Below, in pieces: positions 1,417-64,000 of a DNA stretch of 64,000 bases. The position numbers were made by a program, and so were the translations under genes. The notes beneath the pieces were generated by a model, which was not told where the DNA came from, ran no database searches, and worked only from the letters and a program-made list of their open reading frames with translations. The stretch comes from Cyanidioschyzon merolae (lineage: Eukaryota), in NCBI GenBank assembly GCA_000091205.1, contig AP006497.2; one strand, given 5' to 3'. The first letter of the stretch is position 1. Each line of letters starts with the position of its first letter.

Positions 1417-2530
1417 CAAATTAGGCGAAAAGGTGAGGTGTCTGGTTCGTGTACCCGATCGCATGGATAGACATCCACGGATGCCTATTGAAGCACCTGT
1501 AGGAATACTCCTACGAATACCTGCGCGGATACGGCTATGGACACAGGCATGTTCATGGGTGGCAATGGTTGAAGTGCACGATTCGTGCTGGAAACTGCCT
1601 GCAACCTGTCACGTTCACAGTGTGTTGTTGCAACTTGTTTCGCATGCGTCGCCAATGCCGCGTCCCGAGTTTTCTTTTTGTAAAGAACCGCTTTCACCGA
1701 ATACGGTTGGATGCGAATCTTGATGCTCTGGTGGATCATACGCCAGAGACTAGTGGGACCGCTGCAACTGTATATATTCTCAGGACGGCGCTGTTCGTCG
1801 ATCGCGTTTCCAGACACCACACCCGAGCAGTCCATATGATCAGTTCGCATCTATGGGTTCGCCCCGGAGACGCAACGCGGGAGACGTCTTTGCACCCGAT
1901 CCCATGGGTGAATCTGCATCCACCGAGAAAACCGAGTTGAGCGCTTACCTCGTACCGTTTAGGCGATCGCTTTTGAGATCCGATGCTAGCGGGGGTCGGG
2001 GTATCCGCTGACCTTTCTACGACTGGATGCCAGCGCTATGCAGCCTGAACCTCGTCGGAGCTGCTGCTTCGATCGCCATATGAAAACGTGAGATTCGATT
2101 CGTGCAAAGCCAACAAAGAGTCCATATGCAGAATACAAACTTTTCCTTCAGCAAAAGCAGCCTCTTGCAAGTAAGGATCTACGCGAGGTTTGTGGTGTAG
2201 GACCCGTACCTCATTCGCGCTGGGGCGTCTAGAGTGCTGGGGGTCTCCGAGGTGCCCCCGCTGCACGCTCCTGCCCTGCCGCCTGCGCTAAACAACACCT
2301 TTCATATACTGGGCACTCGCGCTCTCTCTACAGGTCCTTCGCTTCATTCATCAGCAAATATCCGCCTGAACGTTTGCCGGCACTGCAACACCAGACTTGG
2401 ATAACTGCATTCAATGAAAGAGTGACGCTCTTTTTCCAACGTAGAGCGCCACCAACCTACAACCGCGTCCTAACCTGCAGCTGTTGCAAGACGCCCTAAC
2501 GAGAGCATCTTCTGTACCGAACAATTTCCA

Positions 2531-2951
2531 TACCAGTGCTGCTCCCTAAGCGCTATCCTAACCCAGCGCACAGTGTCTTGAACGGTTTTGTGGTACGCAC
2601 TCGGAAACAGTTGGCGTACCAGTGCTGCTCCCTAAGCGCTACCCTAACCCAGCGCACAGTGTCGTTAACGGTTTTGTGGTACGCACTCGGAAACAGTTGG
2701 CGTACCAGTACTGCTCCCTAAGCGCTACCCTAACCCAGCGCACAGTGTCGTTAACGGTTTTGTGGTACGCACTCGGAAACAGTTGGCGTACCAGTACTGC
2801 TCCCTAAGCGCTACCCTAACCCAGCGCACAGTGTCGTTAACGGTTTTGTGGTACGTACTCGGAAACAGTTGGCGTACCAGTACTGCTCCCTAAGCGCTAT
2901 CCTAACCCAGCGCACAGTGTTGTTAACGGTTTTGTGGTACGTACTCGGAAA
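2531..2951. repeat. 86-bp minisatellite, about 4.9 tandem copies, each containing an inverted repeat GGTACGC…(15 nt)…GCGTACC and a CCCTAACCC motif
   Basis: Direct reading shows the unit 'taccagtRctgctccctaagcgctaYcctaacccagcgcacagtgtYKtKaacggttttgtggtacgYactcggaaacagttggcg' repeating at 2531, 2617, 2703, 2789 and 2875. The two ORF-track entries 2536..2721 and 2622..2807 give identical peptides offset by exactly 86 bp. The period is not a multiple of 3, so the repeat is non-coding. Confidence 0.9.
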
Positions 2952-3042
2952 CGCTCCAGTGGCCGCGTCAGCGTTCGCTGTCCACCTGTGTGCCAGCCCG
3001 TTCAACGAGTGCAGTTCTCTTTTTGAAGATAGAGGCTTCTTT

Positions 3043-21889: not shown

Positions 21890-23252
21890 ACGATATTTCC
21901 ATACCCTACCATGTCCCGTGGCAGAAGTGCGAGTGACGCGTGTGACTGCGATATCCACTGGAGCAGCCCCAGAGACAGGTGTGGGTTCTTTGTGGATGCA
22001 CCTCCACGGATACGTCGATGAACTCTAAAGTGATGCGCTGGCATTCAGGTGCAGTGCGTTCGTGAAAGCGTGGGTTTTCTTTTACGATAAAGCGGTTCCA
22101 TGCTTACAACCCGATACCTGGCTATACCTGCATGCGAATACGATGGGCAGCGATCGCTCTTGTCTTTCTCATGAGCATCAAGTTCGGTTCATGCGATATC
22201 ACTCACACCAGTGTCTATGCGGTATCGAGGCAGCCCATCTGGAACCGCATGAACGCCTGCCCAGCTGAACGCCCGTGATGAAGTATGCGGAAGGTCACGG
22301 GCTCCCCGAACACCTCCTGTGACGTTATGCGAGGTTGAAAGACGCCTTGGCTAGCCACGAGTACGAACCGACGACGTGCGCGCCGTTGAGAGTGCAACGC
22401 TTCGGCGACCGCTGACGCGCGCCCTGGGCACTCGGTCCGCAGCTTGTCTCGGCTACAGTGCCCAGCGAGCGGCACGGTTAGCAGCGTTCAAGTCTATCCA
22501 GACTAGTTGAAGCGTTACGGAGCAACGTTCGGAGGTGCTCGCTCGAGAAACTCCTCCGGAAGCCGTCGGTCGCTAGTGCAAGCGCTATGTCTGACAGAGG
22601 GCATGTGGTCCATGAATGAAGGATACGACGCACTCCCCTCGGCTTGCTTCGGTGCTCTGAGCGTCTAGATGGGCGCTGACGCCATCATTGCATTCGTTGG
22701 TTCGTCTGGGGGCGTCCATAACGAGCACTGGAAAAGTTGAGAACCTGTATCTGCTTTCCGTTGAGGTCTTTGGCTCCGATCTCTTGATTTACAGGTGTGG
22801 TGACAGCCATGATGTCCTTAAACCCAACGTCCATGCCAACGCTAACGTCATTCTCATCATCCATACGGAACAGACGAGCATGAGTTCTGTCGCTTGGCCC
22901 AGGTCTGGGTACCACACACTGCATGCAAATGAATATTTCGTCAGTCACTTCTGTCCGCGTAAAATGCATTCCATTTGCTCCTTGTAAACGAGAAAACTTG
23001 AATGAGCTCTGTCAACGCCCATGGCGAAGCTGCTCGGATGCTTCCTCCTCTCTAGCGGAGACCAGTGGTAGCTCACTGAGGACACCAGCCAGCGCACTGC
23101 ATAAGTTTCTACACTGATACCATGAGCCTTGCTCTGCAAGATGGTGGCCACGTATCGACGTTACGCTTCCAGATGGCGAAGGTATTCGGTTTCGGTGGAC
23201 GGAATCTGCTTTGCTCCCGATGACTCTTTTCGGGGACACCTTGTAGCATGAG

Positions 23253-33473: not shown

Positions 33474-35162
33474 CAGGCGTCAGTGTCCGCGTCGCCGAGC
33501 ACGCTGTGTACGCTTCTCGAACCTGAAAGCGACAACACTGGACTCGTGGCGATGCGTGCCGCACGGTGACGCAGTATCCGTAGCTATCCAGAGAAGACGC
33601 GCTTTCTGTTGGCTAGCGTGCGGCCTAGAGCCAACGTCGCTTCACTATCGTTTCCGTACCTCGTTTACCGCCTGGTGCGCGTGGCTGCCTTTCCACTTAA
33701 GGCGCATGAGCAGCGCTTGCCTTTCGTCCCTAGAGTTGTACTTCGCCGGTTACGTCCGTCGAGATCAATGAAGATCACCCCTTTTTCTTCGCTTTGAAAC
33801 GCAACTGCCTGTCGGAAGCGCGCTTTCTCAGTTTAGAAAGCCCCGATCAGTGACGTCTAACTAGAATCCAACATCTCAGCATGCAACTACCAGCTCAGGC
33901 GCCTGAGGGAAACGTCGTAGCATCCGCGCGACAATTCAGGAAACGTTCTGCGATGATGAAAGGTCAACAAATACCCAATAGCAGACGCCTTCCGGTCTTT
34001 TTGACTGGCCGCCTGCGGTCCGTTTCAGTTCATCCTTGCACAGTACGAGTCGGGGTGGCTGTCCCATAAAGTCGGCCCACCTCAGCTTCTCGGGTCTCGA
34101 CCTGAGTACCGCACATCGCTTGATATGGATGGCGGCATTTGGAGCCTCGGTTCACGAACTCCTTGCTTTCTTTTTTTGACTCGTGTTGAACGCACCAGTG
34201 CAAAGAATGCTGGAGTTCGTGCCCTCTCTGCCACCGCAGACTCGTCATTGTTCCGTGGGGCAAACACAGTTCGTCTCTTGTCTTTCCTATTTTGCACGTT
34301 CTTCTTCATCCGATGAACACAGAGAAGAGGTTTTTTCGTCTTTTTCCGGTACCCGGCGATGACGGTCCCGCAGGATCCCCAACTCTCATGTCCATACCTT
34401 TTACTTGGATTTTGTATTTCTTCATGTGAGCGCACTTCGAACGCCTCTGCAATCAACCGAGAAGAAGCATTTGATGACACGCTCCTCGAGATGGAACACC
34501 ATCGAGGTGAAAGACTAGAAAAGCTCCCGGAATGCGAATGGCTAGTATCCATTCGGAGACATAGAACGTGCTTTTCTGAACGCATGTAACAGGTATTTTG
34601 CGTTTCTTGGTGCTACGGAGGGAATCACCATACATGCCAGGCGCCCAGTGAGTGCATGATCCTACACCTCGGATCGAGTCAGGCGAAGTGTATCCAAGGT
34701 TCGAAAGCTTCTACACGGCATCGCGTGCGCTGCTTTCGTGACGTGCTTGCTCCAATGCACGCTGTTCGGAAAATGGAGGTCACATTGCACAGCTGATGCT
34801 GCCTTGGTTAGAAAAGTGCTCTAGGGCGTCGAGTGCGCACCTGGTTTGCTGCTGGTGCTTGCGAAGTTCTCGTTTGTACCGCTATGCTCGCGCAGCGTTG
34901 CGCTTTTGAGGAAGGCAGCCCTAAACCAGACCTGGACGACGATTTAAAACATTTCAGAGAGAGTCTTGTCGAGCGACACCTATGACGCCTGTTAATGCTC
35001 AATGGTTTGCCTAGGCGCTTGCCCGACCGGGAACGAACGTCTCACTCGAAAGGGCGCCTTCAGTCTTGACCAGTTGCGCTGGCAGAATACATGTCGCTGA
35101 AGCATCACCCCGTGCACCGACTTGACGCCATCTCGAGGCGTTTATCGTGCACAATACATGTA

Positions 35163-38141: not shown

Positions 38142-41100
38142 ATGGCTTTCCTGCCTCTAGTGCCTAGACCAGTTGGGACGAGACGGTGGTCAGGAACGTG
38201 GAACAATGCTTCAGTAGAGTCCAGAAAAGCGGCAGCGTGGAGGCAAAGCGACAGGCTCAAACCGGCAAAGGAGGTGCCTGCGAAGCAGCGTACCTCTTCG
38301 TCAAGGACACCGCCTCGTTCCTCCTTAACCCAGCGTCTGCGGGCGCTCGCCAATGTACCGGAAAGGAAAGACAACGGCTCGCTACTGGACGCTGAACAAG
38401 AAGCGCTGGAGTCGATGTTTTCGTTCAGCTTGGATGAGTTCCAGTTGCGGGCGATTCGCTCCGTGCTACAGTCGCGCTCGGTGGTCGTTTCGGTTCCGAC
38501 CGGCTCCGGAAAAACTGTGATTGGCGAAGCAGCACTCGCAATTGCGCTGAAAAAAGGCATGCGTGCTTTCTACACGACGCCGTTAAAGGCGCTCTCGAAC
38601 CAGAAGTTTGGCGACTTTTGTGATCGTTTTGGGACAGAGCAGGTTGGCTTGCTCACTGGCGACATTTCCATTCGCCCGGACGCTCCCATCCTCGTGATGA
38701 CCACCGAAGTGTACCGCAATATGCTGTACCGCTGCCGTACTGGGGTGCTTGCGGAGCTGAGCGTCGCCGCATCCCCAGTAGACGAGGTGCTGGCACCGGC
38801 GACAGAGGACGCCCACTCGATTGCACCGCTTCTGCGTGCTGGCTATCTCGATGACCTTTTCGTGGTTGTATTCGATGAGTTTCACTACATGAATGATCGC
38901 GAACGTGGTACAGTTTGGGAGGAGGCTGTCATCGGCAGTCCGACGCATACGATCCTGGTGGCGCTCTCGGCAACGATGCGCAATGCAGCAGAGATCAGCG
39001 AATGGTTCGAGGCAGTCCACGGTGTAACAGACCTGATCGTAGCTAATGATCGCCCTGTACCTCTGGAGTATGTGTATCTGGACGCGGATGGCCTGCATCC
39101 GCTTTTGGTGCCGCTAAAGCGAAGCAGCGGTGATAAGGGGAAGGGGTTTGGGCGCTCTCGCCAGCGCGGTGCCCGAAACGAGAGCAAACTTCCAACCATA
39201 GAGGGTCGCTATCAAATGAATCCGGAGCTGGTATGGAATGTCGGCCAAGAGAGCAAGCAGATCGCTGAGCGACGTCAACGTTGGCGCGACGCGAATGACC
39301 CGAACCTGCGACGCTCTGCGGAGGTGCTGGAGCGTCGCGAAGCTCGCCGCCTGCGCGAGCTCTACCGCGTTAGCGTTCCCTCGTACCCTTTCCTGGTTCG
39401 TTGTCTTCGTAATCGTCAGCTGCTCCCGGCAATTGTTTTCGTGTTTTCCCGAAGTGGGTGCGATCGAGCGGTTTCGGAGGTACTTCGGGAGCGCAGCGCC
39501 CTCAAGCTGGTGAGCAAAGCTGAGCGCGCCATGCTCGAATCTGAAATGGAGGCGTTTTTCGAAGTGCATCCAGAGCTGCGTGAGAATCCAGACTCCCAGA
39601 AACGCTATGAATCAATCATGGAGGGCGTTGCCGCTCACCATGCTGGCATGTTACCGCTTTGGAAGGCGCTCGTCGAACAGCTGTTTCAAGCCAACTTGAT
39701 CAAAGTGGTATTCGCGACCGAAACCCTCGCCGCCGGAATCAACATGCCAGCTCGCTCGACGGTGGTAACCGCTCTGAGCAAACGCTCCCGTAGCGAAGGC
39801 ATTCAGCGCCTGACACCGAACGAGTTCCTGCAAATGGCGGGCAGGGCTGGACGCCGCGGTATGGACCCCATCGGCTACGTCGTCGTCATGCAAAGTGCCT
39901 GGGAGCCATCCGCAGAGGTCGCTTGTCAGCTGCTGCAACGAGGTGCGGACGCCCTGCGTTCCAACTTTGTGCCGTCCTACGGCATGGCTTTGAACCTGCT
40001 CCGTTATCCGGGTACACCACTGCAGAGTGCACGACGCTATCTGGAGCGGTCGTTTGGAAGTTTTCTGGCATCGCGTGGTCGTCTGAACCAATGGAAGCCG
40101 GAAATCCACGATGAGGTCGAGGCACTCGAACGTCAAGTGAAGGAAGCACATCGCATCTTTGCGCAGCACGGCGGCGAGAAGGTTGTCGCCGCTTACGATA
40201 AACTGCTGGAGCGATTGCGCTGTGAGGAGCGGATTCTCGGATACCTACATGAGCAACACGAAGAGAGTGCGGTTAGCATCATGGAGGACCTGTTGGTATT
40301 CTCGGACCCGGGAACGATTGTCTTGCTTCCTGATCGAGCGGAACGCGCCGTACTTGCTGGTGTCGTCGTCGAGCGCACACTGGACACCCCGTTGCGCTTT
40401 GCACTTGTCGCCGCGGATGGTCGTATTCGAGTGTGCGGACCGCGCTACATTGCAGCTGTGCTTTCCAAAGAGCCGCTGGCGAAGGTTTCGCTCCCAGACT
40501 CTTTGACTGGACTCAAAGCCGAAGCACTGAGCGTCCTACATTGGCGAGAGCTTTTTTCAGCTTCCAGCCGCTATGGTGAAGTTCGGGAAACGTTTGAGCC
40601 GGTCATGGACTGCGGCCTCGTGGATGTTGGCACAGCGCCTGCGCTCGAGTACTCGGAAATGACCACCTGGGATGATTTGGCAGCACCACCGCTCGCGGTG
40701 CCCGAGATACGTCGCCAGCAGAAACTCGTCGTCGACCTTCAGGAGCGTTTGGCGAGTTTCAGTCTGCACGATCATCCTGATTGCGAACTTGTACTGAAAG
40801 CCTATCGATCCCTGGGCGTCGCTGAAGCACACCTTGGTCGTCTCCGTCAGCGGCTGATGCGTCAAACCATGCAAGCTACTGCTACCGAGTCGTGGAATAT
40901 TTTTCGTGCTCTCGTCGATGTTCTCGAGCGCTATCGGTGTTTGGAGCGCGTCGAGGAAGTAGAAGACGATGCTCGTGCCGAGTCTGGGCAGGATGTGACG
41001 CGAGCTGCACCTGAGGCCTCCGACGATACCGGCTCGCGATACACGTTCTTCCGCTTGACCGAGTTCGGTTCTATTGTTGCTGGATTGCGCGTTGAAAACG

Positions 41101-41786
41101 AGTTATGGGCGGGACTGGCGCTCATCCACGCCGAGCAGCAACTCGCAGGGCTTGCACCGCACGAGCTCGCGGCTGTCGTAGCATCGATTGCGGCAGACAC
41201 GAGTCTCCCGCCCGGCGGCTACTGTCGTTTCCTGCCCAGCGTCCGAGTTTTGGACCTATGTCGGGAGGTGCTGGGCCCGTTGCGCAAGCAGCTTGCGGCA
41301 GCACAACAGGAAGCACTGGAGACGTACTGGTCGCCGTCCATGGCGACGCTGAACGGCGAGCTCATGATTCCCGATGTGCGGCTGTCGTACGACCTAGCCG
41401 GTGTTGTGGAAGCCTGGGCGTGCGAGACGCCGTGGTCAACGCTGCTGAATGGGGTCAGCCTTGATGAAGGCGATATCGTTCGTCTCCTGCGTCGCACGAT
41501 CGACCTGTTGCGGCAGATAGCGAACCTTGGCACCAGCTCGGGTCTCGGATGGTCTCGTCGTGTTGCCGCACTCGTTTCCTCACAGCTAGTGGTGAATGCG
41601 AAACGAGCACTTACACTGATCGATCGCTATCCAGTTAATGATGGCGGTCTAGAACGGGCGTCTGGTGGACAGGTTGCCGAGTCGCTGGAGCTCGACAACG
41701 ACTCCGACGAGGACAGTGCGGAGGTCGAAGAAGACGTAGCCTGGGACTCGGGTGAAGATGCGATATTGGCCACCTCCGATGAGTGA
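38142..41786 (+). CDS. DExH-box RNA helicase of the Ski2/ISE2 family with a C-terminal DSHCT domain (1214 aa), with a plastid-transit-like N-terminus
   Basis: Walker A 'VSVPTGSGKTVIGE' (nt about 38495). 'FYTTPLKALSNQKF' matches the Ski2-like motif Ia; I recall ISE2 as reading 'TTPLKALSNQKF' but did not check. DExH box 'VVFDEFHYMND' (nt about 38865). Motif VI 'LQMAGRAGRRGMDPIGYVVV'. DSHCT-like C-terminal block 'ETPWSTLLNGVSLDEGDIVRLLRRTIDLLRQI' (nt about 41425-41540). Acidic tail. The R/S/T/P-rich first about 100 aa could be a transit peptide. Confidence 0.85.
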   Translation: MAFLPLVPRPVGTRRWSGTWNNASVESRKAAAWRQSDRLKPAKEVPAKQRTSSSRTPPRSSLTQRLRALANVPERKDNGSLLDAEQEALESMFSFSLDEFQLRAIRSVLQSRSVVVSVPTGSGKTVIGEAALAIALKKGMRAFYTTPLKALSNQKFGDFCDRFGTEQVGLLTGDISIRPDAPILVMTTEVYRNMLYRCRTGVLAELSVAASPVDEVLAPATEDAHSIAPLLRAGYLDDLFVVVFDEFHYMNDRERGTVWEEAVIGSPTHTILVALSATMRNAAEISEWFEAVHGVTDLIVANDRPVPLEYVYLDADGLHPLLVPLKRSSGDKGKGFGRSRQRGARNESKLPTIEGRYQMNPELVWNVGQESKQIAERRQRWRDANDPNLRRSAEVLERREARRLRELYRVSVPSYPFLVRCLRNRQLLPAIVFVFSRSGCDRAVSEVLRERSALKLVSKAERAMLESEMEAFFEVHPELRENPDSQKRYESIMEGVAAHHAGMLPLWKALVEQLFQANLIKVVFATETLAAGINMPARSTVVTALSKRSRSEGIQRLTPNEFLQMAGRAGRRGMDPIGYVVVMQSAWEPSAEVACQLLQRGADALRSNFVPSYGMALNLLRYPGTPLQSARRYLERSFGSFLASRGRLNQWKPEIHDEVEALERQVKEAHRIFAQHGGEKVVAAYDKLLERLRCEERILGYLHEQHEESAVSIMEDLLVFSDPGTIVLLPDRAERAVLAGVVVERTLDTPLRFALVAADGRIRVCGPRYIAAVLSKEPLAKVSLPDSLTGLKAEALSVLHWRELFSASSRYGEVRETFEPVMDCGLVDVGTAPALEYSEMTTWDDLAAPPLAVPEIRRQQKLVVDLQERLASFSLHDHPDCELVLKAYRSLGVAEAHLGRLRQRLMRQTMQATATESWNIFRALVDVLERYRCLERVEEVEDDARAESGQDVTRAAPEASDDTGSRYTFFRLTEFGSIVAGLRVENELWAGLALIHAEQQLAGLAPHELAAVVASIAADTSLPPGGYCRFLPSVRVLDLCREVLGPLRKQLAAAQQEALETYWSPSMATLNGELMIPDVRLSYDLAGVVEAWACETPWSTLLNGVSLDEGDIVRLLRRTIDLLRQIANLGTSSGLGWSRRVAALVSSQLVVNAKRALTLIDRYPVNDGGLERASGGQVAESLELDNDSDEDSAEVEEDVAWDSGEDAILATSDE

Positions 41787-44700
41787 AATTTAGCTTGTAA
41801 AGGCACTGAAGCGGAGCTCGCTGACCATCGATGACCTGCAGCAGCATGGAAGAGAAACGGTCTTTGCAAGGTGCACATGAAGAAGCCGATTACCCGCAGA
41901 GTCGACGACGGGACTTGCAGGCGAGACTCGCGAAGCGCCAGCCCTGGTAGCACTCGTCTTATTTCGAGTCTGGGATACTGGGAACAATGGAAAAAGGATT
42001 CGGGTGTCGTTTCGTGAAACGTTGCAGTAACTCGTTGTATGTCGGAGTTGTATGCAGAGCGGTACATTCGGGAACTACTGTAAGAGGACGTTGTTTTGTT
42101 TGTTCTTTTTTCTCGCGGATATTCTACACAAGGATTGCATGCTGTATATTGGAGAAAGATTGCATGAAGACACGATACGATGCTTGATGGATTGCGGAAA
42201 TCGGCCTCGCTTGTACATGTCAGTTATTCTACGGGATGCAGGTGGTTGAATTGCCGGTCACGCCGTCCTTGTTCTCAACGTCGTGCACCGAAAACGGGAC
42301 TTGTAAAAATCGGTGTACACGACACTCTCCCTATCAATCCAGTAAAAGGCGTGCATTCTCGGAGAAAAGTCTACAATAGAAGCAACAGGATGTGAGGTTT
42401 CTGTACCGCTGACACGAACGTGGATCAAGAGACGCGAAAGCACAGAGAATGATGTGCACATTTATGGGCATGCGTCGCGCCTTGAACAAAAAGCATATAA
42501 TGTATGTTACACGAGCAAGCGATTGATTGCTGCAGGAAGGACTGGTGCGGGTCTCAGTGTATGCGGCTTGATTCTAGACAAGTGGTATTCCTGTATGCAC
42601 GTACTCGGAGTCGCGCAATCTGCAATGCGGAAAAAAATGAAACACGCGAGCGCAGTGACAGCACCAGAAGTCACAGTGATTCTACTATAAGGGCACCAAC
42701 GGAACACCGAACGCTCAGGAATGTTCGACGCCTCATGTTTCACTGAAGCTCTCCACGTGGTTACCCATTCTCGCTTTCTTTGGTCCTGTTCATGGAGAAC
42801 GATGCTTTCCCGAACATAAAAGCGGTCATGGAATACACAGCTGAGTTTTGCGCTGAGCTGCCCTTCTTTCAGACGTTTTCTTCTCGGTTCAATCGAGTCG
42901 AATCCATAGCGTTTCTGCCTTGATGGAGCGTCTGCACCGGCGCGTTTGGTGCTATTGTAGACGCTCACGGCAGGCTGAGCGCACAGTAGTACGGATGCAA
43001 CGACCGGTCTCTTCAGGGGGAAGGGTTGCGGTGGCTGTTGCACCTCGCATGACTCGCGTGGAATCATGACTGCCCGCCCCTATACTGATAACAACCGCGG
43101 CTTTGGGTATTCCAGCAAGTGGAAATGCGGGGAAATCAAGTAAATTCCATCCAAAGGCGTCGTCTTTGTCGTCTAGCGCTATTTCTATGCTCATGGATCA
43201 ATTTACAACTCATTCGGACCGAAGGAAACGTTCTTCGACGAGTCTTTCTCTACTTTTTCCTGTCCTGAACCACAGCGCAGCTTCGAATCCTGTGCACGGG
43301 AGGGAGCGAAACGGCGTGCATCTATTCTTGGGCGTACGCACAACCGAGACAACGATGAAACCCGACGTGAGGAATCCTTGGTACATGCACAGGAGAGGCG
43401 AGGTGCCGCACCAACGGCCATCAAAGGTGTCTGATTCGCGCTAAAACATGAATATGGAGTGCAGTGAACGCATTGGTGCCACTCTGTTGAATTATAGTGT
43501 AAGAGAAAATTCTACGCGACAAATCAGAGCAAGATAATCCTAGAGTGCAGACGGGTGAACACATCGAGGAAAAAATGTTTGCACATGAAAGAAAGTTCTG
43601 AAACTATTAGAAAAGGAACTCCCTGTGAAAGCTCACCAACGGGAAGATCGCTTCAACTGGTGAGATGCAGAACGCCTTTCGAGCATCTTTCTCATAGATA
43701 GCTCACATCGCCTCTCTCGCGTTGGCGCATACCGTCAAGCTACTGGTCGTGCGAGTTCGGGGCAGAGGGCTTTCAGCTGTGCAGTTTATTCTGGAATTTT
43801 TCAATCAAATCGTCGTACAAGTACCGGTGCTCAGGCAGAGGATGCAATACAACCCGATCGCCGGGTCAGGGATTTGCAAAGACGCTCCTCTGAATCCCTT
43901 GACAGGTCGCCGTGCTAGCCCGGCGATCGGAGTATCTACTGCGCCGGTGCCGAAAAGTTTCATACCGATCTCAAAAAAACTGCATGAAATCAGGGTTCAT
44001 GTCGAGCGCTTCGAGAGTCGCGCTCTGTTGCCGTTGGAAACTCACTGTACTGGCACCGGGAAGCAGGGACCGTTGCAAGAGATTCTAGGTTTCAGACAGT
44101 ACATCAATGTCCAAATGGCCTATGCGGACGAATTGTGGCAAGCGTACCCGCGATCAAGCAGAAACTGCCGACTGTTCCAGTTCTACAACGGTAAGAGGCG
44201 TGAACTCGTCAGCTTGTTCAATGAGCTGGAAGAAAAAATCATCGATAACTCGCAACGTTTGGTGTTCGTCAAGAGAGCTGGACGTACTGCAGTGCACAAA
44301 GGCTGCGCTCCTGCGTCATCGACTTGAACGCATGATGCGTACATGAACCAATGCTGCACGTTTCCCATCGATGGGTTTACGACGGTATAGACGCTCGACG
44401 AGCACATGAAGACGCTGAAACAGATAGGAAAGAAAAACGTGAAACGGAGACGGATGCAAGAGATGGTGTTTGGTTGTCGGAGCAAACGTCAGATGGCTAG
44501 AGAATCGATGGTGAGCTGGTTCTGATGATATGATTCCATGAGCAAGGATGTGCTCGAGGACATTCTAAACATTGATCTCAATGCCTCTATCAACCATTCG
44601 AAATGTCTCGTACTTTTGAAGTGTCTTGAGGCTTCGCCTCGAGAGAACATTCAAGGAAATCATTCGGTGTTCAATGTGGATGTGATGCTGAAATGCTGCA

Positions 44701-47700
44701 GACTTTCAATGAAAAAATCAGTGGACAACACAGAGGTCACTAGATTCTCGCCTGTAGCGGTGCATTAGCGACGTGCGCTGGGCAGTCAAGCAAGCACGGC
44801 TGGAGCAACGTATTCACAACGGGAACGATTTTCCCGGGCACTTGCTGAAAGATGATTTTGTTCTGTTGTGCGATGTTCGTGCGTCACCTGATACGTAATG
44901 GGCGCTTCGTGTCAGTCGCTTCCAATCAAACTTTGTGGCGTGCATGACATCTCCCGATGATTTCGAGCGAAAATCCCGTGTTGGATTCGTTATTGGACGT
45001 AGGCTGCAGTTCGAGGTTTTCGTCTGCCTGCACGCCTCCGTCCACGAAAATGTGTTTTCGAGGATTGGCTTCACTGCACCATGACTGGATTCCATGCGAA
45101 TAGCAGGCTGTCAACTTGCGCCCTGACTGCGAATTGTCGCTACATGCTGAGCGGTTTGGAATGCTTCTGCATGTCCTAGCGAGTCGACAAGAGCTCTCTT
45201 GCTGCAGAGGCACGAAGGATACCCCTGATGCCTCGGATCTATCGACCGTGGAAAGCGTTCGCACGGGAGATACGTCCAGATGCTCACGTAAGTACGCACA
45301 ACGAGAATATGAAAGAAGGTGCTGCTCCGAATCGTCTCTTCTTCGAGGTATGCGCCTGAAGAAGAGCTTTTGGGGATAAGGTGCGGTTTATCCACGGTGG
45401 GTGCATGCGAGCAGTGGTGTAGACGGAATCGTCTGAACCTCGGAGTGCCCAGGGCTCGCGACTGGCGCCCAAGTCATCAAGTTGCTGCCGAGACTTCGAC
45501 AGGAGTTCGCGTACGAGGAGTGCTGTCGGGCGGCCAACAACTCGTGTCTCGCAGTCGGTCGAGTCGCATCACATCCTGCGTGGAGACGGAAGCTATCCGC
45601 TCGATGTCTCGGTGGACCAACGCCTTCCTCGAGGTGCGCATTGATGCCGATGTCCGTCTATATCCGGCAATAAGATCGCAACCGCAACGGCTACCTGCTC
45701 GTTGGTCGGCAAACAGCGGACAACCAGTCGGCGCGCTTGAACCCTCTACCAAAACTCATCATCTTGTGCTCGCTCGTTATCAGCGTATCCGGAAGCTGGA
45801 TTGGTTGCAGGTTTCAGATAAAGCGCACTGAGGCTTGCACCTGTTGGCAAGGCCGAGCCAAAAAGTGCCACTCGTTCAGGGCGCCCCGTGCGGGCGTGGC
45901 GCTCGCGGGATACGTATTGGACTGGCACTGCTACGAACTTTACCACAGCGTCTAAGCTAAACTCCCGCCTGCTGTAGTGTATGAGCAGCACAGCGCTGCG
46001 TAGCGTGAATCTGGCCCGAGTCCCGACACTTTGAGGCTCGTCTTGGATATGATGCGTTCTTGGCGGTGCAGCAGCTCCGCTCACAGCACTGCGCACCAAG
46101 GTCTGTGAAGCGGCGCCTTACTCGCCAGTCTTGGTTATGTTGCAGCGCGCTGAGGCATTCTGAGATTGCAACCTGCACTCGAGCTCGACACATTCTGAGG
46201 AACTTCCGGCGTTCAGGGTTCGATAAACACAGGTGGTAGGTGGCCACCACACGCCAGTACTGTTGGAGGGCTCGTTTCGCTTGCGCCGAAAGCCACTGTA
46301 CGTACATAGACGGTACCGATATGCGCTCTTCTGCTTTCAGCAAGTGTGCTACGCTACTGGTGCAAACTGGACAGAGGTGGTATATGCGTGCCTCCTCTAT
46401 TGCCTTCTCAAGGTGAGCGTACGCGTCCACAAACTGAGACCAGGCCCAGATGCGATACATTCCTATGCCATTGGCGCGATAGGGAGAACATTTCAGGCGA
46501 GGCATGGAACTTCAACTACTGAGCCAAGTCTTCCAACAAGTTTCAGGAACCGAATGTTATTTATGAATTAGCTAGTGTCGTGTCTTGAGCAGACCAAGGC
46601 TTGGGTTGCGCTGTTCATCGACAGGTGGACAAGCATCCATTTGACCAGAGAGTGATTGTTGGACATCTACGGTTCCTCTTCTGGATGGTTTAGATCCTTG
46701 AAATCAGGAAGCAGGTCGCCGTGATCTTGAACGAATTCCTTCGTAGGCAAAATGCCAGTCGCAGGTCTCAATGGGGCGGCCCTCACTTTCTCCCGCGTTG
46801 TATGATACGGTCTCTCGCTGAAGCGCGAACTGCGGATGGAGAGCCATGCCAAATCCATGCAACCCTTGCTGCTTTTTATGGAATGTGTGCTGTCTTGCAT
46901 GCTGTTCCTAATCACACTGCCGTGTACTTCAAGGCGATGAGCGGCATGCTTGGCGCTGTCGGATGCGAGCGACCGAGCATCATCTAAACCGTCGTTCCGG
47001 TCGAGGATGAAAGTACGACATAGCCGCTGCGGCGGTGTCGCGGAGCGGTGCCTGTATTTGACCTCTTAAAATTGGATCTTTTTTTCGAAGCTGTATGCGC
47101 ATCAAGGCAGTCTGGTGAAGCACGAAGGACGCTCGAATGCATTAAAATCCTCCAAAGAGAGACTAGCGGAGTGGGACGTTTGGAATGACCGAGCGAGCTG
47201 TGACCTGTATTGTCGGATTTTTTGGTCTATAGTATAGCAAACAGGAGCTTTTCATTCGTCACTGAGAAAGCGGCCTGCAATGGCATCAGGTTAAAAAATA
47301 CACAACGCGTCAATGACAAAATGGAATCATGCTCGTCTGGGACCGACTTGATTTGCCCACTTATAGGCCGGGCGCTGACTGATATGGTTGCCTACTGCTA
47401 GAGCACGTTTTCGAAGGATTCGCAATAGCGCAGGGCACCATACCTGGGTCCCGGTCTCAGGGCGGAGTCACCATTGGCATGTTGTTCTGGTAGAGCACCT
47501 GACCCGCCACAGGGCCAACATGTACACAGATGCAAGCACTCTGGATAACCCTGCTCAAGTACGCACTTTGCTCGTCCTAAACCAAGTGTAGAGATGTTGC
47601 GGGACTAGGGCATACACCTGTTGCGTATGGGCGTGCGTGCGGGCTTCTCGCCACATCTTTGCATACTTCCGACAAACGCCTTACAGATTCATCAACAACC

Positions 47701-49512
47701 TATTCAAGGATCGTTGATCGACAGACAAAAGACCGCCGTGCTGGTTATTCTCAAGACGTTCAGGTACAACAATAGAGACGTCAGAAAGAAACCGAAAGTG
47801 TCTTCTTCCTGGGCCCCACTCGATAAAGTTTGAGTCTCTTTCTACTGCTTTCGACAAACCAGCCTTTTTGCAAGCGTTCTCTGTGACCGCTTTCACTTCC
47901 AGTGTCTCTCATCTCGGGACTGGCATCCGTCGGTGTCTCTGTTCCTTCAAGCACTGTTGTCAGCACTCGGACGATAAGGGTAGCTACGTCCGAAAGCCGA
48001 ATTGGCCGCTTCCTGCTGTTGCCAACGCTTTTCATCTACAGACGATCATTCTATGTACGCTTTGCTCACCAGGTCCATCTCCTTCGTTTCAGCTTTATTG
48101 GGGCCTTTGCATGTGCGGCAGTAGACTCTGAACAGGTGCTTCCGCACGGCCATCACCCTTTCTCCCACGATCGCCGCGCTGAGGGCCATGAGGACGTTCT
48201 TCACCTCTGAGCACATGCCGATGACGGGCACAGAAGCTCCCCTTCGGTACTCTACGCTGTTTCGGCGCCCGATGCCGAGTCTTGCAAACAGAGGCTTCCT
48301 CTGGCCCTGCACCTCGGCTGGAGCTCTGCGCGCTGTACAAGCAAGCATATTCTGTCCCATTCGATAGACTATTCGTGGACTGCGATGTTCTCCGTGATGA
48401 AAGAACTACCAGAAAGAATATAGAATTAGAGAACCGGCAGAAAAATTCCGGTTTAGCTCTTCTCTCGTCGGGCAGAACCGTGACCGGCGCGGGAGTGGGA
48501 GCGATCACGGCGGTGACAAAGTTTCTAATCCATGACCCTCATCGGTGCTAACTGAAGGTACGGAGCTCCGGGGAGCATACCCACTGAGCGGTTTCAGGCT
48601 GCTATCGAATCTTTTTTCGTCGTTGACAACAATGAGAGGAATCTGGTGTCGTTCGAGCGAGATCGATTCTTTAAGGTAACAAGTACATGGACCGTTCCGC
48701 ATGAACTTGTGAGCAAGTCATCTGGCGACGACGTCGAGAATCTCACCTTGTCAATACATCGGCACGAGTTGCTGCGTCTACAATTCTTGTTGACACAACG
48801 ATACCGGAAAACCGGAATGATGTATGATTTCGCGATTGCTTCATGCGATGGAAGGAGACGAACGGAGATTTCCACATACAAAATGGATAATGGCTTCAGT
48901 CAAGTTACCGACCATGGTTCTAGGAGGTCGCGAAACATCCTAACTCTGGTGAAGTAACGAATTCTAGCAGCAAAGCGTCCCCGCTATCCGTCCGATGAAA
49001 CGATCGAGAATCCGAAAACGATCGAAATAAAAACGAAAGCCCTTACTGATGCGCTTTGAGTACCCCAAGGCTGAATACCTACAAAAACATGCAAGAATGA
49101 AATCTACGAAAAACGCGAGTACTTTTGCTTTCGCTTTGAATCCTTCATAGGTGGAAAGTTGATGGCTTCGTAGTACGCAGCATCGCTTTCGTGCAAAAGC
49201 GCTTTACAGAGAGGGTATGTGGAGCACGGCTAGGCGGCCGTCTCCCAGCGCTCAACCTCGACATGTCCATATTGTCCAGCCACGATTTTGGCCAGCAACG
49301 CTTTCGCGGTTGTGTGGAGTAGCAGCAGCTCACGATTTCTGTTAGAGCAGTCGGGGCCGATCTTTGTTGACCACGAGGTCTCCACTGTTTCATAGTCAGT
49401 AGTGCTAAACAAATTATCAGAGGTTGCTGAATACAGGAAGAACGTAGGGAACGATCGTACCGGTTCTGGTGAAAGCACTACGTGCGAGCCTTTCCCCGCG
49501 AACACGCTCTGA

Positions 49513-55824: not shown

Positions 55825-57780
55825 GATTCGGCCATATTTACGACGAGACATCCTATGGTGAGCGTTGTAGACATTACGCTCGACTTGATAGCGAATGCCC
55901 GACATGAACTGCGATATCGCGCACCGCTCATATACGGAGTTGGAGAGGGCGCAGTGCCCTGCTCCGGAAAGCGCTGTAAACTTCAATGGAGCCGGGGTGT
56001 GTGTGTATGTGTGTAATGTCACGCTACGATGAATGGATGGAATCGTCTGCGTCTGGTGCCGTGCAACTGCTGCAGTCGATGGAGCATGGCGCTTTTCCAC
56101 GTTGCGCATTGTTTGACATCCGAGCCAGCTCGTCGCTGGGCTTGAACGACCCCAGGCCGGGGCAGTGCCGGGGGAGCGCTTCGTCGCGGAGGCTATCGCT
56201 CTGGGTCTTCTAGTTTCTGTGGCATGCCTCGTGATGGCGCGGCTTGGTGCACTGTGGTGCTCTCTTTGTGAGCTGTTCTTCTTTTTCTGAGCCTACTCTG
56301 GGCAGAGCGGTTGTGTGGTTGAAGTGAAAGGTATCGCAGATTGTAAAGTGAGGTATTGTATCGGGTGCAGGATGCACTGATGCTGTCCCAGGTAAAGACT
56401 GCATCACTGCTTCACAAGAAGGAGCATATGCAGATGGAAATCTCGCGGCTTGTATTCCAGCCTAGGCATTTTCTTCCTGTAATTTTCACATCATGAGCAA
56501 CATTGCGTGCCACAACATCCTCTAGCGAATGGAACGGTATGCATTGGATTGTGCAGCCGACAAAGTCCTTGCTGGGGCATCATCCAGAAGAAGCTGGTGA
56601 TCATAGGGTCATGCACCAGGGCGCCGGAACCGAGGGCGGCACGGAATGCAGCCCCTCGTATACGCTAAGTGCATATACCGAGCGATGAAACATGTTTCGA
56701 TGCTCCACAGCACGACTCTCGGGGGATAAGATGATTTAGTGCACGTATAGGCACAACTGACAACTGCCATTTGTCCTGCTGCGAGGCGTTCATCGAGGCA
56801 GTATACCAAGAACATTGAATTGACAATCGAAGCGTGGGTCGAAACTATCTTGTGTGCAGCATTTACGTCAACGACAGCTGGAAGCGGCTGCACGGAAAGC
56901 TCAGCGCTGCCATCCACACGCTTCGACTGCTGACAACAGGGCAAGAGGTAACGAAGAGACCAGGATATTCCAGTCCGGAGAGAAGCGTGTGGAATTGAAA
57001 GCACTTGCAGCGAATCCCGCAAAAGCCGCTGTTGATGGTGATGGCAAGAGATTCGAACCTAAGACCGTACATTGGATAAGGTTATATGGACTCAATCCGT
57101 TTCGTTTCGACACAGGTGCATTAGTTGCCCGAAAAATTGGTCTGGTCTCTGGAGCGGTGTTATTCAGAGATTGTGCAAGCCTTGTAACGTGGGGGGTCCG
57201 CCACTGGGCTTGGCAGGTCGGCAGCGCGCTTTTGATCCTCCTTATACACACGGGAGGATGAACACGCCACGGAGCGTCGTAAGCTCATTTTACGTGCCCC
57301 ATGGAGAGCGTTCCTTTGAGCCAGTCAGCGGTGCGGACGGTCGGGAAGCAAGGGCGTCAAAGCGCAGCAGTCGCCTTTACGGTACCTACAAAGAGCTGCT
57401 ACAAGTGATTGAAGAGCTTCGTGAGGAAAGTGCTCGCTGGCTACACGCTGATCAGACGAATGCCGAGCGACCAGTGGGCGAGGACGTCGACTGTGCTGCT
57501 AAAGCTTCTAGCGGAGAGAGAGACGACGTGCAGCCGGCACCAGTGTCGACCGCGCTTGCGGGAAACGGCACAAGCTCCGTTTCAGGGATAGAGCTTTCTG
57601 GTTCGTCTTAGAGTCATAGGAAAGAAGCCTGTCCAGCAGGGGCGAGTGCTTGGCACGTGGGAGAGGTACGAGTGTATATACGGGGCGAGCTGCTACTCGC
57701 CACATCCATGTCAGACCAGGTGCAACGCTGCGGGTTTCACCTTGTTGACTCGGGTGCACGATGTGAAATTTTGGTAGTTC

Positions 57781-57839
57781 CCACCACCACCAGCACCAGC
57801 ACCACCACCAGCACCACCACCACCAGCACCACCACCAGC

Positions 57840-57873
<34 letters not shown>

Positions 57874-57877
57874 TCAT
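57781..57877. repeat. Compound microsatellite (CCA/GCA)n followed by (CAT)8
   Basis: Direct reading 'ccaccaccaccagcaccagcaccaccaccagcaccaccaccaccagcaccaccaccagcaccaccaccaccatcatcatcatcatcatcatcatg'. The His-coding frame has no upstream ATG before a stop at 57764. Confidence 0.9.
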
Positions 57878-59819
57878 GACAAGCCTTTGCGGGGTTTTTG
57901 TGTGACGGCTTCATCCTCTCCTGTCTTATCTTCGAATTTGGATAAGCTGGTCTTTCCTTTCCTTCCGGCCCCATAGTCAGCAGTCGAAGGATGTTGATAG
58001 CAGCTTTCTTCCCGATTTCGCTGCTTTCGACCACTGACAACGCGATATATTCTGAGGCAAAAGTTGTGATCCACATGTCGCATGTCATTTTCATCTTCTT
58101 TATATGCAGGCTCGGTGCGGCTTTGGCAGTGCTGACACCTGTCTCTGGTCAGGTTTTCTCGTATTTAAGCTGGAGTTTCTCGGTCTCCGAGGCTGGCTCT
58201 TTGACACCCAAACGCTTGCATCATCTCCCGATAGATGTCCGTCATAGGTACGGAAGGCTCCCAACAATGCCTTTCTTCGTTTCGGAGCCCGGTGCCATAC
58301 CTAGCAATCACGACCAACTCCTGGGCGCTCCTCTCAGTGAGAACGCTGTGCGCTGCACGCGCAACAGCACGCTGTTCTTTTCGATAAAAGGTTTGTGATA
58401 TGCGATGTCGTTCGTGATGAAACTACTATCGGAAAGAATGTTCGACAAGAAACCTTGCCGAGAAATTCAATCCAACTGCGGGGTTCCTTCATGCTCCGCC
58501 GCATCGCGCTCTCCTCTGGAAGTAATCGCTGTGATGACACGAGTCCGAATCCAAGATCCCTTTCCATGCAGAAAGAAGAGACACGAAATTCTGGAAGCAC
58601 AGAATGCTTCCACTATCATGATGATGTCCAATACAGTATCGTCAATGGCTACAAAGAGACGAGAATTCGTCTCTCGAATGGGCTCGATTACTTGACGCGG
58701 GATGCTCATTGAACATTCTGCATGAGCGTGTGAAGATGCCGCAGCGGACGGCTTGGAATATGTTCATTCGTGAGACCATCCGCGTGTGTGGTTTTACACT
58801 GGAGTGTTGCGAGACAAATAGATCGAACAATTGAAAAATATGTGATATGAACAATGTACACACAAACAAAGGAAGGCAGTGGCAGCATGTACGTATGAAT
58901 GAAATGATAATTTCGTTTATATTAGGATGCCTTGTTCGATCGGACAGCAAATGATCCTTGTGACGTTGCAGTTACGAATTTCAGCTGCTAAGCGCCTAAG
59001 GAGTCATTCCAAAAGGACGGTTAAGAATTCTGAAACAAAGTCTGAATCCATTAGCGTTACCATTGTGCCTCGGGTGTCGACGCCGGGCAACCAAGAAAGC
59101 GCGGAAAACAAACCAAAAGTCAGAGGCACATCGAGGCGACCTATGATCTTTTCTAATCCGATACGGGTATGGCGCATATTCTCTGTGCTGTTTATGTTGC
59201 ACACATAAATCGAGGAAACACTTGGAAAGCTCGAGCGAACGGCATACAGAATACCCGCAAGTTTCGCATGGTAGATTGGGGCGCGAACCGCAGGCTGCAT
59301 GTGCAGCATGTGGTCATATCATACACCATGGTCGCAGATATATGGCGAAAATGTGTATACCTGCTTTGAGAACCCAATCGAACACCATAAAGATAATGAT
59401 CATGGTCACGTACGGCCCGCGCTGCGAACGACGCAAACATGCGCTCTGATTACTTCTGAAGCATCTTTTCTGCTGTTATCACTTAGGTACGGAACCGCAA
59501 ATCGAACGAAACGTTTCACGCATTTGTAGAGACATTGTCAGCATCAGGCTGCTACTGCCATGCATTGTGGTCAGACCTTGATTTTCATGTTGCTCACACA
59601 ACATTCTCCATTCGAAGCACCTCATCTAGTCCCTCAGGAAACTGATTTCACAGTCGGCAGCTATGCTCGGCTTGTGAGCAGTAGATAGAGAAGCGACCCG
59701 TAACAAGGCTGGCGGGCACATGATCAACGTCGCGTGTTCATGCTTACAGATTTGAGCGTAGCAATCTTCTCCGATCCCAGACCGACGTATCCGATTTGGT
59801 TCAAAGGTCTAGTTGATAT

Positions 59820-60671: not shown

Positions 60672-61024
60672 CGCCGTACACAGTCGAACGCTGCCGACCG
60701 TGTACAGTGGTGGCTAGCGACCCGCCCTAGACGAAACGTCCCCAACTGACGTGCAGCCGCCTCCGAGCCGCTGTCGACCGGCCACCTGCTACTGCGTCCA
60801 TTTGTGTCTCATTTCTTTCCGACGTTTAGAGGTTGTCCAACAAAATGCTCTCGTGGCCACTCTGGAGGTGTGTTCTCCAGCACCGCACATTTCTTTATAT
60901 TGATAACAGCGATAAAGTCTCGGTTAACAAACTCCATACAATTCTCCCTGTTGGTTGTTGTACTTACTAGTGCACCAAGTCCTCGAATTTTCGCCCTCCT
61001 TTCCATTTGCTCTTCCGTCAGCGC

Positions 61025-61468
61025 TCAGTACTTTTGTATATCATCAGGGCTCCTCCGACGCTTTTCCATCTCGACCCCCTGAAGTGTACACCCCAGTTCA
61101 TGGTGTGTATACGATGTTCGGAACTCATCTTCGGATGTTGTAACGAAACGCCGTGGACACTCCTTGTACACCCTCGTCGTTGGAGATGACGTAGTCTCTT
61201 TCTTAGGCGCACAGCGCCCGGCCCCATACGCTACTACGAGCCTCTGACGTTCATCCTCCTCCAAGGTGCCCAACTGATTGAAAAAGTTGGCAAACGCCCG
61301 CTGTTTCCCAGCATATAGATTCATTCGCAAACGAACCACCGGGGCTTTGTATACTCTTCGCACACTTGCTCCGAATGAGCGACGCGAACCTCCGATGAAC
61401 ACCCGAAAAGCTTCAGAGCCCGCTCTGCGGGTAGTCAACTCTTTCATAGCTTCCAGGTGCTCTCTCAT
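61025..61468 (-). pseudogene. Short ORF (147 aa) with a degenerate TnpB/Fanzor(OrfB)-like C-terminal signature; possible relic of an IS605/IS607-OrfB-type element
   Basis: 'LVVAYGAGRCAPKKETTSSPTTRVYKECPRRFVTTSEDEFRTSYTHHELGC' resembles the RuvC-II-to-zinc-finger junction of TnpB/Fanzor proteins ('…GdW…kg.pPsPtk.L…VdE(F/Y)xTSK.C..C'). The Zn-finger cysteines and RuvC-III are absent, so the ORF would be truncated or decayed. It sits in the low-GC subtelomeric block. The call is pattern-level only. Confidence 0.2.
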
Positions 61469-61918
61469 TTCTGCAATCCACGTCTCAGTTATCTTCCTCG
61501 AACTCGTGATACCCGCTACTCGATAATTCCTCGCTCAAGAGAACCTCAAAAGACGCATACATTACTGATGTAAGTCGCCGTCGATGCAGTCTGCCGCACG
61601 CTTGGGAACAGCAATGGTTATGATATTCGTGTTCCAGGGGTTAAGGCTGACGACAAAGTCGTTCCCGTAGGGATATACATCCAGTGGCCCGCCTTCCTTT
61701 TTTCGTGTTTCGGCAAGTTCGATAACGCAGACGGGATAGCGCGAAGTGCCTGCATCCGCTGAGAGTGTCAATATTTGGATACCGCATCGTAAAAGATTGT
61801 CCCCGTGAATGCCTTTTTTTGGCCGGTTTGGGGCGCATGAAATCGAAGATATTCTTCCAGTAGGTGTCCTGTCCTCGCCGGTGACCTCTTTGTTTCTTAC
61901 ATCGAGCTGAGGGTAGAT

Positions 61919-62719
61919 CTATTTCATGAAGGCGTAAAGGACTCTCGAGTCGATACTCAAAGGATATGACTTGAACTCGCGTAAACGAACAGCAATTAAG
62001 CGAATCTGGAGAAGCTTCTCAATGGCGTTTCTCCCATCGGTCATTTTTTCCACATTCAGCTCCATGTCGGCCTTGCGTTCGAGTTCTCGGTCCAAAACCA
62101 TGAAGTAGGGCAGGATGAGGGGGTAATACCACTCTTCGTCTGTTTGGTCATATCTGACAGTTTTGTCGTGGGCTGACAAGCCCCAAGACCGAACGATGCT
62201 TTTAAATAGTCGAGCGGATAACAGAAGCCTCATTCATTCTCCTCCGTGACGTCCTCTTGTCGACGAATTTGATATACAGTTCACGCTGGCGATCGTTCTT
62301 GATACCATCGATGATTGCCCGCATAACTTCGCGAAACTGGCCCGGGTACAGCGCAAAGACGGCGCATATCATGAAAAAAAGACGTTTAAGATCGTATGGT
62401 TTCTTACAATCGTGAGGCACATCATTGCACTATATACGTAAATATCTGCGTCACACCTGTGTCGAGCACCGTTGAAGCGGAATTTTGCGTAATTTTTTGG
62501 TGAGGCATGCACTTGCTCGTTTCTCCTCGATGTTTGCCCATTAAAAAGAGTCAGATGGTTGATGAAATTCTTATTGAAAAATTCTTCCGAAAACATCACT
62601 TCTGCGATGTGCGTTAAGTCGCGATGCAGCTCGCTCTCCAAATGCCTCAGTCCTAAAGAAAAAGTACAAACATTCCTGGAGTGAGAAACTACGCAGTTTC
62701 TGATACCGTCTCGCAACAT
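61919..62719 (-). pseudogene. Three overlapping minus-strand ORFs in three frames (62369..62719, 62202..62420, 61919..62233) that look like one frameshift-disrupted gene of unknown function
   Basis: Consecutive ORFs overlap by 51 and 31 nt on the same strand. All three are lower-GC with similar amino-acid composition (K/R/E/F/Y-rich globular-looking). No domain recognised. Confidence 0.3.
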
Positions 62720-63984
62720 TCAGCCGTACGGATCATTGATATGTGGGAGACGAGAGGATTCCACACCCATCTCGTCGTACAGACGTCCCAAATGCAGCCA
62801 TCGACGTAAGGCACCCCATTTTCCTTCTTCTTCTCTTCCTGACCTTTTTCACTAGGCACTGTGACTCGTTTCCTTCTGACATCCGGCAACAACGACCAAC
62901 AAAAACCCACTATCTCCAGTTGCATAGCTCTAACTTTTTTTCGAGAAAAACACATTGTACGCTGCTGTTTCGACCGCGAGAATTAGTTGAACACATTTAC
63001 AGGAAGATTGAAACGCCATTGAAGCCAACACTAAAATTTGCTACGTTCGGATAGCATATAGAACTGGCCCCGATACAGCAGTCGCTCAAGAAGAGGTCAT
63101 TAACACGTTCCCCTTGATTGGCGAGACGCACGTGGTGGAATATGACGGCTGGAGTCCGGGAAGCGTTACCAGGGAGCACTATACAAAAAAACAAAAAAGA
63201 GACAATGTCCAAAAACGCGATGCCAAATACGAAGGCCACCTACTGTAAACATTGAAAGGAAGAAGTATTTGGGTATGGTCAAACAGTTACATTTAGGCGA
63301 GAGGTATCCGAGCGCGAAAATCTAATCGCGTGTACTCCGTGTGACCTTTAGTGGAGAGTGATGTGACGCACCTTGGTATCTCAGCCGAAACAAAATTGAT
63401 TATGGGACTAGGAGCGGGCATTCTGCGTCTGAGCGTTAACTTCGTCCCGGTGGACTAATAGCACACAGCACCACGCTACCGCGGGCAATAGATCCTTTAG
63501 AACAGTTTGGAGGCTGCCAAGAAAGCATATGACCCCCGTATCTCATGTTGCATGAACCAAGCAACTCCAACGCGCTCCATGGAATCCAAGAGCTGCTCTG
63601 TTTCCAGAATGCATCCCCAAGAGAGAGAGAGATGCTACGGCGGATGCCAGACAGGCTTAGGGCGTACAATCGAAGCGTAAAACGACCAATGCCGATGCAC
63701 GTGACTAAAAAGTGTGGGAAGGTACAGAAATAGTCAGGCTTAACAAAATACATCCCCAAAACAATGTCGATCCGACAATATCGGTCACCTGGTCAGAGGA
63801 CAGGATCTGTCGATCAAAAAAAAGCCAGGCGTGGAATGGAAAAGCCTAAGGGCTCCGGAATGATAAATGTCTATATACCACTCACGTACGCGCCAAAAAC
63901 GTAACGCCGGAGAAAAAACCCTAACGAATCTGGAAGGCTACCCTTCATAATCACAGATGCTATCGCGCTGAGAACATGGTATGT

Positions 63985-64000
63985 ATGGGGGAATGGGGGG
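63985..64000 (+). repeat. Telomere-like terminal repeat (T)ATGGGGG-AATGGGGGG at the window end
   Basis: The last 16 nt 'atgggggaatgggggg' equal about 1.8 copies of AATGGGGGG, the telomeric unit I recall for Cyanidioschyzon merolae. The window is truncated here, so the extent is unknown. Confidence 0.45.

Follow-up and report, generated by a model that had tools for sequence, protein, structure and literature searches.

The window, by which we mean the whole 64,000-nucleotide (nt) stretch of DNA that was analysed, holds approximately 13 protein genes, or about one per 4.9 kb, a lower density than the one per 3.4 kb averaged over the chromosome. Its GC content is 55.0%, and the published value for the genome is 55% (Nozaki et al. 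2007, PMC1955436). Its right-hand part consists, in outward order, of a gene for a Sec7-type guanine nucleotide exchange factor (GEF), 4 kb in which no credible gene was seen, the last chromosomal gene, a degenerate copy of the element CMe-1A, a short stretch of unique DNA and a G-rich stub that reaches the very last base (Table 1). The general features claimed in the original prediction, namely a GC content of about 55%, one gene per 4–5 kb, open reading frames (ORFs) without introns and a CtpA gene, agree with what we found. Six ORFs are contiguous and equal to annotated proteins, and these six are therefore free of introns. The CtpA candidate encodes a protein with Peptidase_S41 and PDZ domains that scores best against the CtpA model. 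The gene proposed to encode ISE2 does specify a helicase, and its DEAD, Helicase_C and DSHCT domains fit an enzyme of the Ski2/ISE2 type without proving that it is ISE2.

Upstream of the Sec7 GEF gene, 7.7 kb contain no annotated protein gene and no ORF of more than 201 amino acids (aa). Neither Rfam, applied to the 64-kb window with gathering thresholds, nor a tRNA search over the same DNA gave a match, in this interval or elsewhere. The last gene, BAM81676, is named in the sources both as 'similar to ER membrane protein Hsd1p' and as dolichol kinase, and had no match in searches of Pfam and NCBIfam; the VTE5-like label given to it in the original prediction was thus not confirmed.

Table 1 Features of the 64-kb window
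Feature	Position	Strand	Description and evidence
CtpA-type protein	2848–5046		Peptidase_S41 and PDZ domains
Ski2/ISE2-type helicase	38142–41786		DEAD, Helicase_C and DSHCT domains
BAM81667			aldehyde dehydrogenase; full-length exact match to 10D
BAM81672			CMO350C; full-length exact match to 10D
BAM81673			CMO351C; full-length exact match to 10D
BAM81674			RNA helicase, 1214 aa; full-length exact match to 10D
BAM81675	49513–55824	+	Sec7-type GEF, 2103 aa; exact match to 10D; second-last gene
BAM81676 / XP_005537712.1	59823–60665	-	Hsd1p-like, 281 aa; exact match to 10D; last chromosomal gene
Faint Fanzor-like matches	22633–22858 and 58210–58407		profile search
CMe-1A fragment	34105–34517	-	internally deleted (consensus 788–969 and 2892–2959); between CMO350C and CMO351C
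Gene-free interval	41787–49512		flanked by BAM81674 and BAM81675; GC 0.512
Fanzor1 relic	44088–44669	+	strongly diverged, several stops; profile E = 1.7e-29
Interval with no credible gene	55825–59819		4 kb, GC 0.511; microsatellite and faint Fanzor-like fragment
Trinucleotide microsatellite	57781–57877		(CCA)25 then (CAT)8; noncoding, between BAM81675 and BAM81676
CMe-1A copy	60687–63815	-	degenerate, near full-length (3.1 kb); consensus alignment
Fanzor1 reading frame	60812–62233	-	474 codons, within the CMe-1A copy
Primer 907-1 site (end 15R)	63323–63345	+	exact match, 655 bp from the window end, pointing outward
(GA)n run	about 63620–63632		short
Unique DNA	63817–63984		168 bp, between the CMe-1A 5′ end and the first telomeric unit
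Telomere stub	63985–64000	+	degenerate first unit, then one full unit; sequence, uniqueness, relatives, published unit

Placement on chromosome 15

An exact-sequence look-up found six of the six ORFs tested to be identical over their full length to proteins of Cyanidioschyzon merolae 10D. The record that carries all six is 902,900 bp long, and BAM81676 is the last protein matched on it. In the published description of the genome, chromosome 15 is 902,900 bp long and carries 265 genes (Table 1 of Nozaki et al. 2007, PMC1955436), and the chromosome-specific primer for the right end, 15R, is 907-1, TAATCGCGTGTACTCCGTGTGAC (Additional file 2 of the same paper). This primer has a single exact match in the window, where 0 are expected. 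Together, the six identical proteins, the 902,900-bp length and the exact 15R primer site identify the window as the last 64 kb at the right end of chromosome 15, and its identity with the deposited 10D record rests on these proteins, the primer site and the record length. We consider it nearly certain that the window is this terminal segment and that the stub represents the innermost 1.8 units of a telomere of the form (AATGGGGGG)n. The source had been predicted from the sequence to be a Cyanidioschyzon-like red alga; the six protein identities and the 10D primer match confirm this. In its telomeric unit, chromosome length, proteins and primer site, the object is the same as the 15R end of C. 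merolae 10D described by Nozaki et al. (2007).

The telomeric junction and its continuation

The last 16 nt of the window read ATGGGGGAATGGGGGG, that is, a degenerate unit with five G residues, ATGGGGG, placed directly 5′ of one exact, full AATGGGGGG unit (63992–64000), precisely as had been predicted. The stub comprises about 1.8 units, with its G-rich strand running 5′ to 3′ outward; this orientation at the right end of the window is as expected for a right chromosome end. The unique DNA directly 5′ of the stub ends ...GAGAACATGGTATGT, and the sequence leading into the stub is also given as ...GCGCTGAGAACATGGTATGT. Taken alone, one exact AATGGGGGG 9-mer is unremarkable, with 0.64 copies expected per window on both strands from the base composition, and when one mismatch is allowed there are 6 matches in the window against 7.3 expected. 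The complete 16-mer has an expectation of about 5e-5 exact copies for the window as a whole, or 4e-10 for a single given position, and the terminal site is the sole match in the 64 kb even when up to three mismatches are tolerated. Runs of at least six G residues occur only three times in the window.

We scanned public metagenome contigs with the 27-nt junction ACATGGTATGTATGGGGGAATGGGGGG and matched two, L002 and L003. A third relative, L001 (6.2 kb), was found by exact look-up of the last-gene protein and stops 550 bp before the telomere. The three are JGI metagenome contigs (L001, 3300050362|Ga0504780_009409; L002, JGI24721J44947_10022069; L003, Ga0078972_1001791). At the DNA level, L002 and L003 are 97.0% and 98.0% identical to the window and collinear with it up to base 64000; L001 is 97.9% identical and collinear up to its own end at window position 63451. 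For L003, collinearity with the end of chromosome 15 extends over all of the retrieved terminal 11.4 kb, and the last 110 aligned columns of the 168-bp unique stretch are identical in L002 and L003. The check set beforehand was to read past position 64000 for further G-rich repeats, and such repeats were found. L002 is a complete contig of 6,879 bp that stops 2 nt beyond the window end, with AA. L003, from a contig of 77,148 bp, ends ...GTATGT ATGGGGG, then AATGGGGGG three times, then AAATGG; beyond the window end it thus adds AATGGGGGG AATGGGGGG AAATGG, and three full units stand head to tail in tandem at the orthologous junction. We take L003 to stop at the contig end, as the locus holds only 24 nt downstream of the match. 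The AAATGG that follows the three perfect units (L003 11354–11377) is either a variant telomeric unit or a contig-end error.

Because L002 and L003 are shotgun-derived, and so independent of any telomere primer, they establish that the junction and its unit with five G residues are genuine and lead into tandem AATGGGGGG, where the assemblies stop. The telomere unit, end 15R and the adjoining transposon family were all published already, in 2004–2007 and 2013, and nothing reported here is new in kind. The sole addition is that the 15R junction with its degenerate unit is common to environmental relatives, in which the tandem array is seen.

The shortness of the stub goes back to the making of the reference. 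All 40 C. merolae chromosome ends carry AATGGGGGG as their telomere repeat, with tracts of 400–700 bp determined from telomere restriction fragments; at most 2.5 repeats were sequenced at any end, and the ends were obtained by asymmetric PCR with a chromosome-specific primer and a telomere primer ...ATTCCCCCCATT-3′ (Nozaki et al. 2007, BMC Biol 5:28, PMC1955436). The telomere primer primes on the first repeats, and long G6 tracts resisted cloning and sequencing, which is why the reference stops after 16 nt. That the reference holds only about 1.8 repeats is therefore a consequence of PCR cloning of the ends and not a property of the chromosome. Stubs this short, below 2.5 repeats, are the norm in the 10D reference, so that the stub constitutes no difference from the published 15R. 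With fewer than two repeats in the window itself, the tandem array of 10D is documented by the literature rather than visible here; in the cell, telomerase would presumably extend the (AATGGGGGG)n tract. The literature places the telomerase genes on other chromosomes (TERT, CMD110C; candidate RNA templates, CMM123T and CMP131T). For users of the reference, telomere length is not readable from 10D chromosome records, which end after at most 2.5 repeats, and the final few bases of these records may be primer-defined. Here, the last 9–12 nt may derive from the primer rather than from native sequence.

This history raises the question of whether the terminal repeat could be purely an artefact, produced when the telomere primer mis-primed on an internal G-rich site that is not a true end. 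The ends were indeed amplified with the primer ...ATTCCCCCCATT-3′, and its complement, AATGGGGGGAAT, spans the last 9 nt of the window. However, the degenerate unit is located 5′ of the stretch covered by the primer and is common to 10D, L002 and L003, and the two primer-independent shotgun assemblies carry the whole ATGGGGGAATGGGGGG junction together with additional repeats; we attach practically no weight to mis-priming. The same assemblies bear on a simpler doubt: by coincidence, the window might have been cut at an internal site, with the chromosome continuing past it, and the 16-mer might be a telomere-like interstitial sequence or a chance G-rich one. A stub of only 1.8 units, and a 9-mer of which 0.64 exact copies are expected per window and whose one-mismatch matches are at chance level, would suit such a reading. 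Yet the full 16-mer is far too rare for chance, two independently assembled contigs end at the same place beyond further AATGGGGGG sequence, the outward-pointing 15R end-cloning primer lies 655 bp upstream, and BAM81676 is the last protein matched on the 902,900-bp record, so that an internal position is scarcely conceivable. The motif thus stands as telomeric and the window end as a chromosome end, as originally predicted, on the strength of the primer site, the published unit and the ends of the relatives' contigs.

The repeat unit was also claimed to be diagnostic for C. merolae, and this part of the prediction fails. A 2026 telomere-to-telomere comparison (PMC13353863) assigns the same unit, AATGGGGGG, to C. 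merolae 10D and Cyanidiococcus yangmingshanensis; for Cyanidium caldarium it lists AATGGGGGGG, with one extra G (a G7 variant), and for Galdieria CCCTAA(A)TAAA, an AT-rich unit that is unrelated to that of C. merolae. The TTTATT(T)AGGG predicted for Galdieria sulphuraria in an earlier survey is the complementary strand of this last repeat. AATGGGGGG is accordingly characteristic of a lineage, Cyanidioschyzon/Cyanidiococcus, rather than of one species, and Cyanidium has a near variant of it; the assignment to species and strain therefore rests on the protein identities. The presence of AATGGGGGG in Cyanidiococcus lends some support to a source other than 10D, whether another member of the Cyanidiophyceae such as C. 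yangmingshanensis or a wild Cyanidioschyzon strain, as does the existence in metagenomes of close relatives with 97–98% DNA identity to the window. Those relatives, however, are about 2–3% off in DNA and have Sec7 GEF proteins of 2056–2071 aa, as against 2103 aa in 10D, whereas all six proteins of the window, those of 2103 and 1214 aa included, match 10D at every residue, and the 10D primer matches exactly. An origin outside 10D is thus highly improbable, and the gene content of the window matches that of C. merolae 10D exactly and not that of Cyanidiococcus, Cyanidium or Galdieria.

A decayed Fanzor1 element beside the telomere

The element between the last gene and the telomere was mapped with the 3169-bp CMe-1A consensus (Additional file 2 of Bao & Jurka 2013, PMC3627910). 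Consensus positions 127–3153 align with window positions 63688–60687 at 72.8% identity over 3056 columns, and a local alignment places consensus position 2 at window position 63815 (score 38, compared with 19.6 +/- 3.3 for shuffled sequences), so that the copy spans positions 2–3153 of the consensus. A gap of 168 bp separates it from the first telomeric unit, and on its other side the last gene has its start codon 16–22 bp away. All three metagenome relatives carry it at the corresponding position. The reading frame of the copy matches the Fanzor1 consensus of CMe-1.

Alignment of intact homologs of this frame revealed three invariant motifs, ADPGNTNIIT, VDEFRTS and NRDFNAAIN. We take these to represent the RuvC Asp-Glu-Asp triad of TnpB/Fanzor proteins, with the Asp of DPGNTNI presumably the RuvC-I catalytic residue. 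In the window copy, the first motif reads SLNPWNTNIIT, with Asn in place of the invariant Asp; DEFRTS and NRDF are retained. The frame is interrupted by four in-frame stops in 10D and by two in L001. Having lost the first Asp and acquired four stops, the window copy is not an intact Fanzor1 ORF, and these changes, alongside the limited overall identity, set it apart from the CMe-1A consensus. Judged from its sequence, the copy is decayed and carries no working gene.

A database search identified 112 homologs of the relic, all of them metagenomic. Many intact members of the family among these homologs (P0089–P0200) bear the precomputed Pfam tag PF26935.1. A few of the homologs, P0162, P0195, P0199 and P0200, are fusions with unrelated enzyme domains and probably result from gene-calling across a neighbouring element. 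Searches of Pfam, NCBIfam and PDB with the relic ORF, intact members and a 14-sequence profile gave no match to TnpB or Fanzor, and an AlphaFold model from the 14-sequence alignment had a mean pLDDT of 30.6 and was unusable. The CMe-1 Fanzor1 consensus protein (Additional file 3, PMC3627910), by comparison, matches the relic's family almost residue for residue, and it is because of the published CMe-1 and CMe-1A consensus sequences (PMC3627910) that we assign the family to Fanzor1.

CMe-1A is present in C. merolae in approximately 150 copies of about 3 kb each, and Fanzor1 is also listed in WSSV (Bao & Jurka 2013, PMC3627910). An earlier study described an interspersed element of 3.2 kb that is present in 253 copies, distributed at random over all chromosomes, and contains a truncated ORF related to WSV486 of WSSV (Nozaki et al. 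2007, PMC1955436). From the copy number, the size and the listing of Fanzor1 in WSSV, CMe-1A and this 253-copy element are probably the same.

Character of the DNA next to the telomere

Comparison with the metagenome relatives separates the genes of the terminal region from the DNA around them. The coding regions of the Sec7 GEF and the last gene differ from the relatives by 0.24–0.59% in DNA (0.25% for the Sec7 GEF gene relative to L003), and the last protein has 0–1 amino-acid changes. The DNA flanking the last gene has diverged by 1.6–3.9%: by 1.6–2.2%, with 48–49 indel columns, in the noncoding interval between the two genes (55825–59819), and by 2.7–3.9% in the CMe-1A reading frame. The distal part (62234–63984) differs by 1.9% in both L002 and L003, and by 0.41% in L001, which ends at 63451. 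Divergence from the relatives thus distinguishes working genes from decaying DNA, and on these alignments the last gene is under purifying selection.

The last 8 kb or so had been interpreted as a subtelomere, on the basis of a lower GC content and a transposase-like relic, among other features. By position the description applies. In other respects it does not: 15R is among nine termini without homology to other ends (Nozaki et al. 2007, PMC1955436), the GC content is that of ordinary noncoding DNA, and a conserved gene lies only 3.3 kb from the tip. Within the 64-kb window, no duplicate of the tail was found. Low GC as a subtelomere signature was considered and rejected. The GC content is 0.506 in the tail and 0.556 in the remainder of the window, and the value for the tail comes close to that of the internal gene-free interval, 0.512 (all noncoding DNA, 0.527; coding DNA, 0.578); the lower value therefore reflects a low coding fraction and not a composition specific to the telomere. 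The relic is real and is the CMe-1A copy described above. Because CMe-1A is dispersed throughout the genome, with further relics in the window itself at about 34 and 44 kb, it provides no evidence for a subtelomere.

A positional role for the element is conceivable, given that it lies 168 bp from the telomere and has been retained in the relatives: it might reflect a preference for insertion next to chromosome ends, or serve as a buffer or boundary between telomere and last gene at ends that, like 15R, are devoid of the shared subtelomeric elements. We regard either as improbable. In its telomere-adjacent position, the 15R tail resembles both the subtelomeric elements that other C. merolae ends share (eight homologous types of up to 20 kb, for example PH) and the core X and Y′ elements of yeast. 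Unlike shared subtelomeric elements, however, the element that adjoins the telomere at 15R is the relic of a dispersed transposon and not an end-specific repeat.
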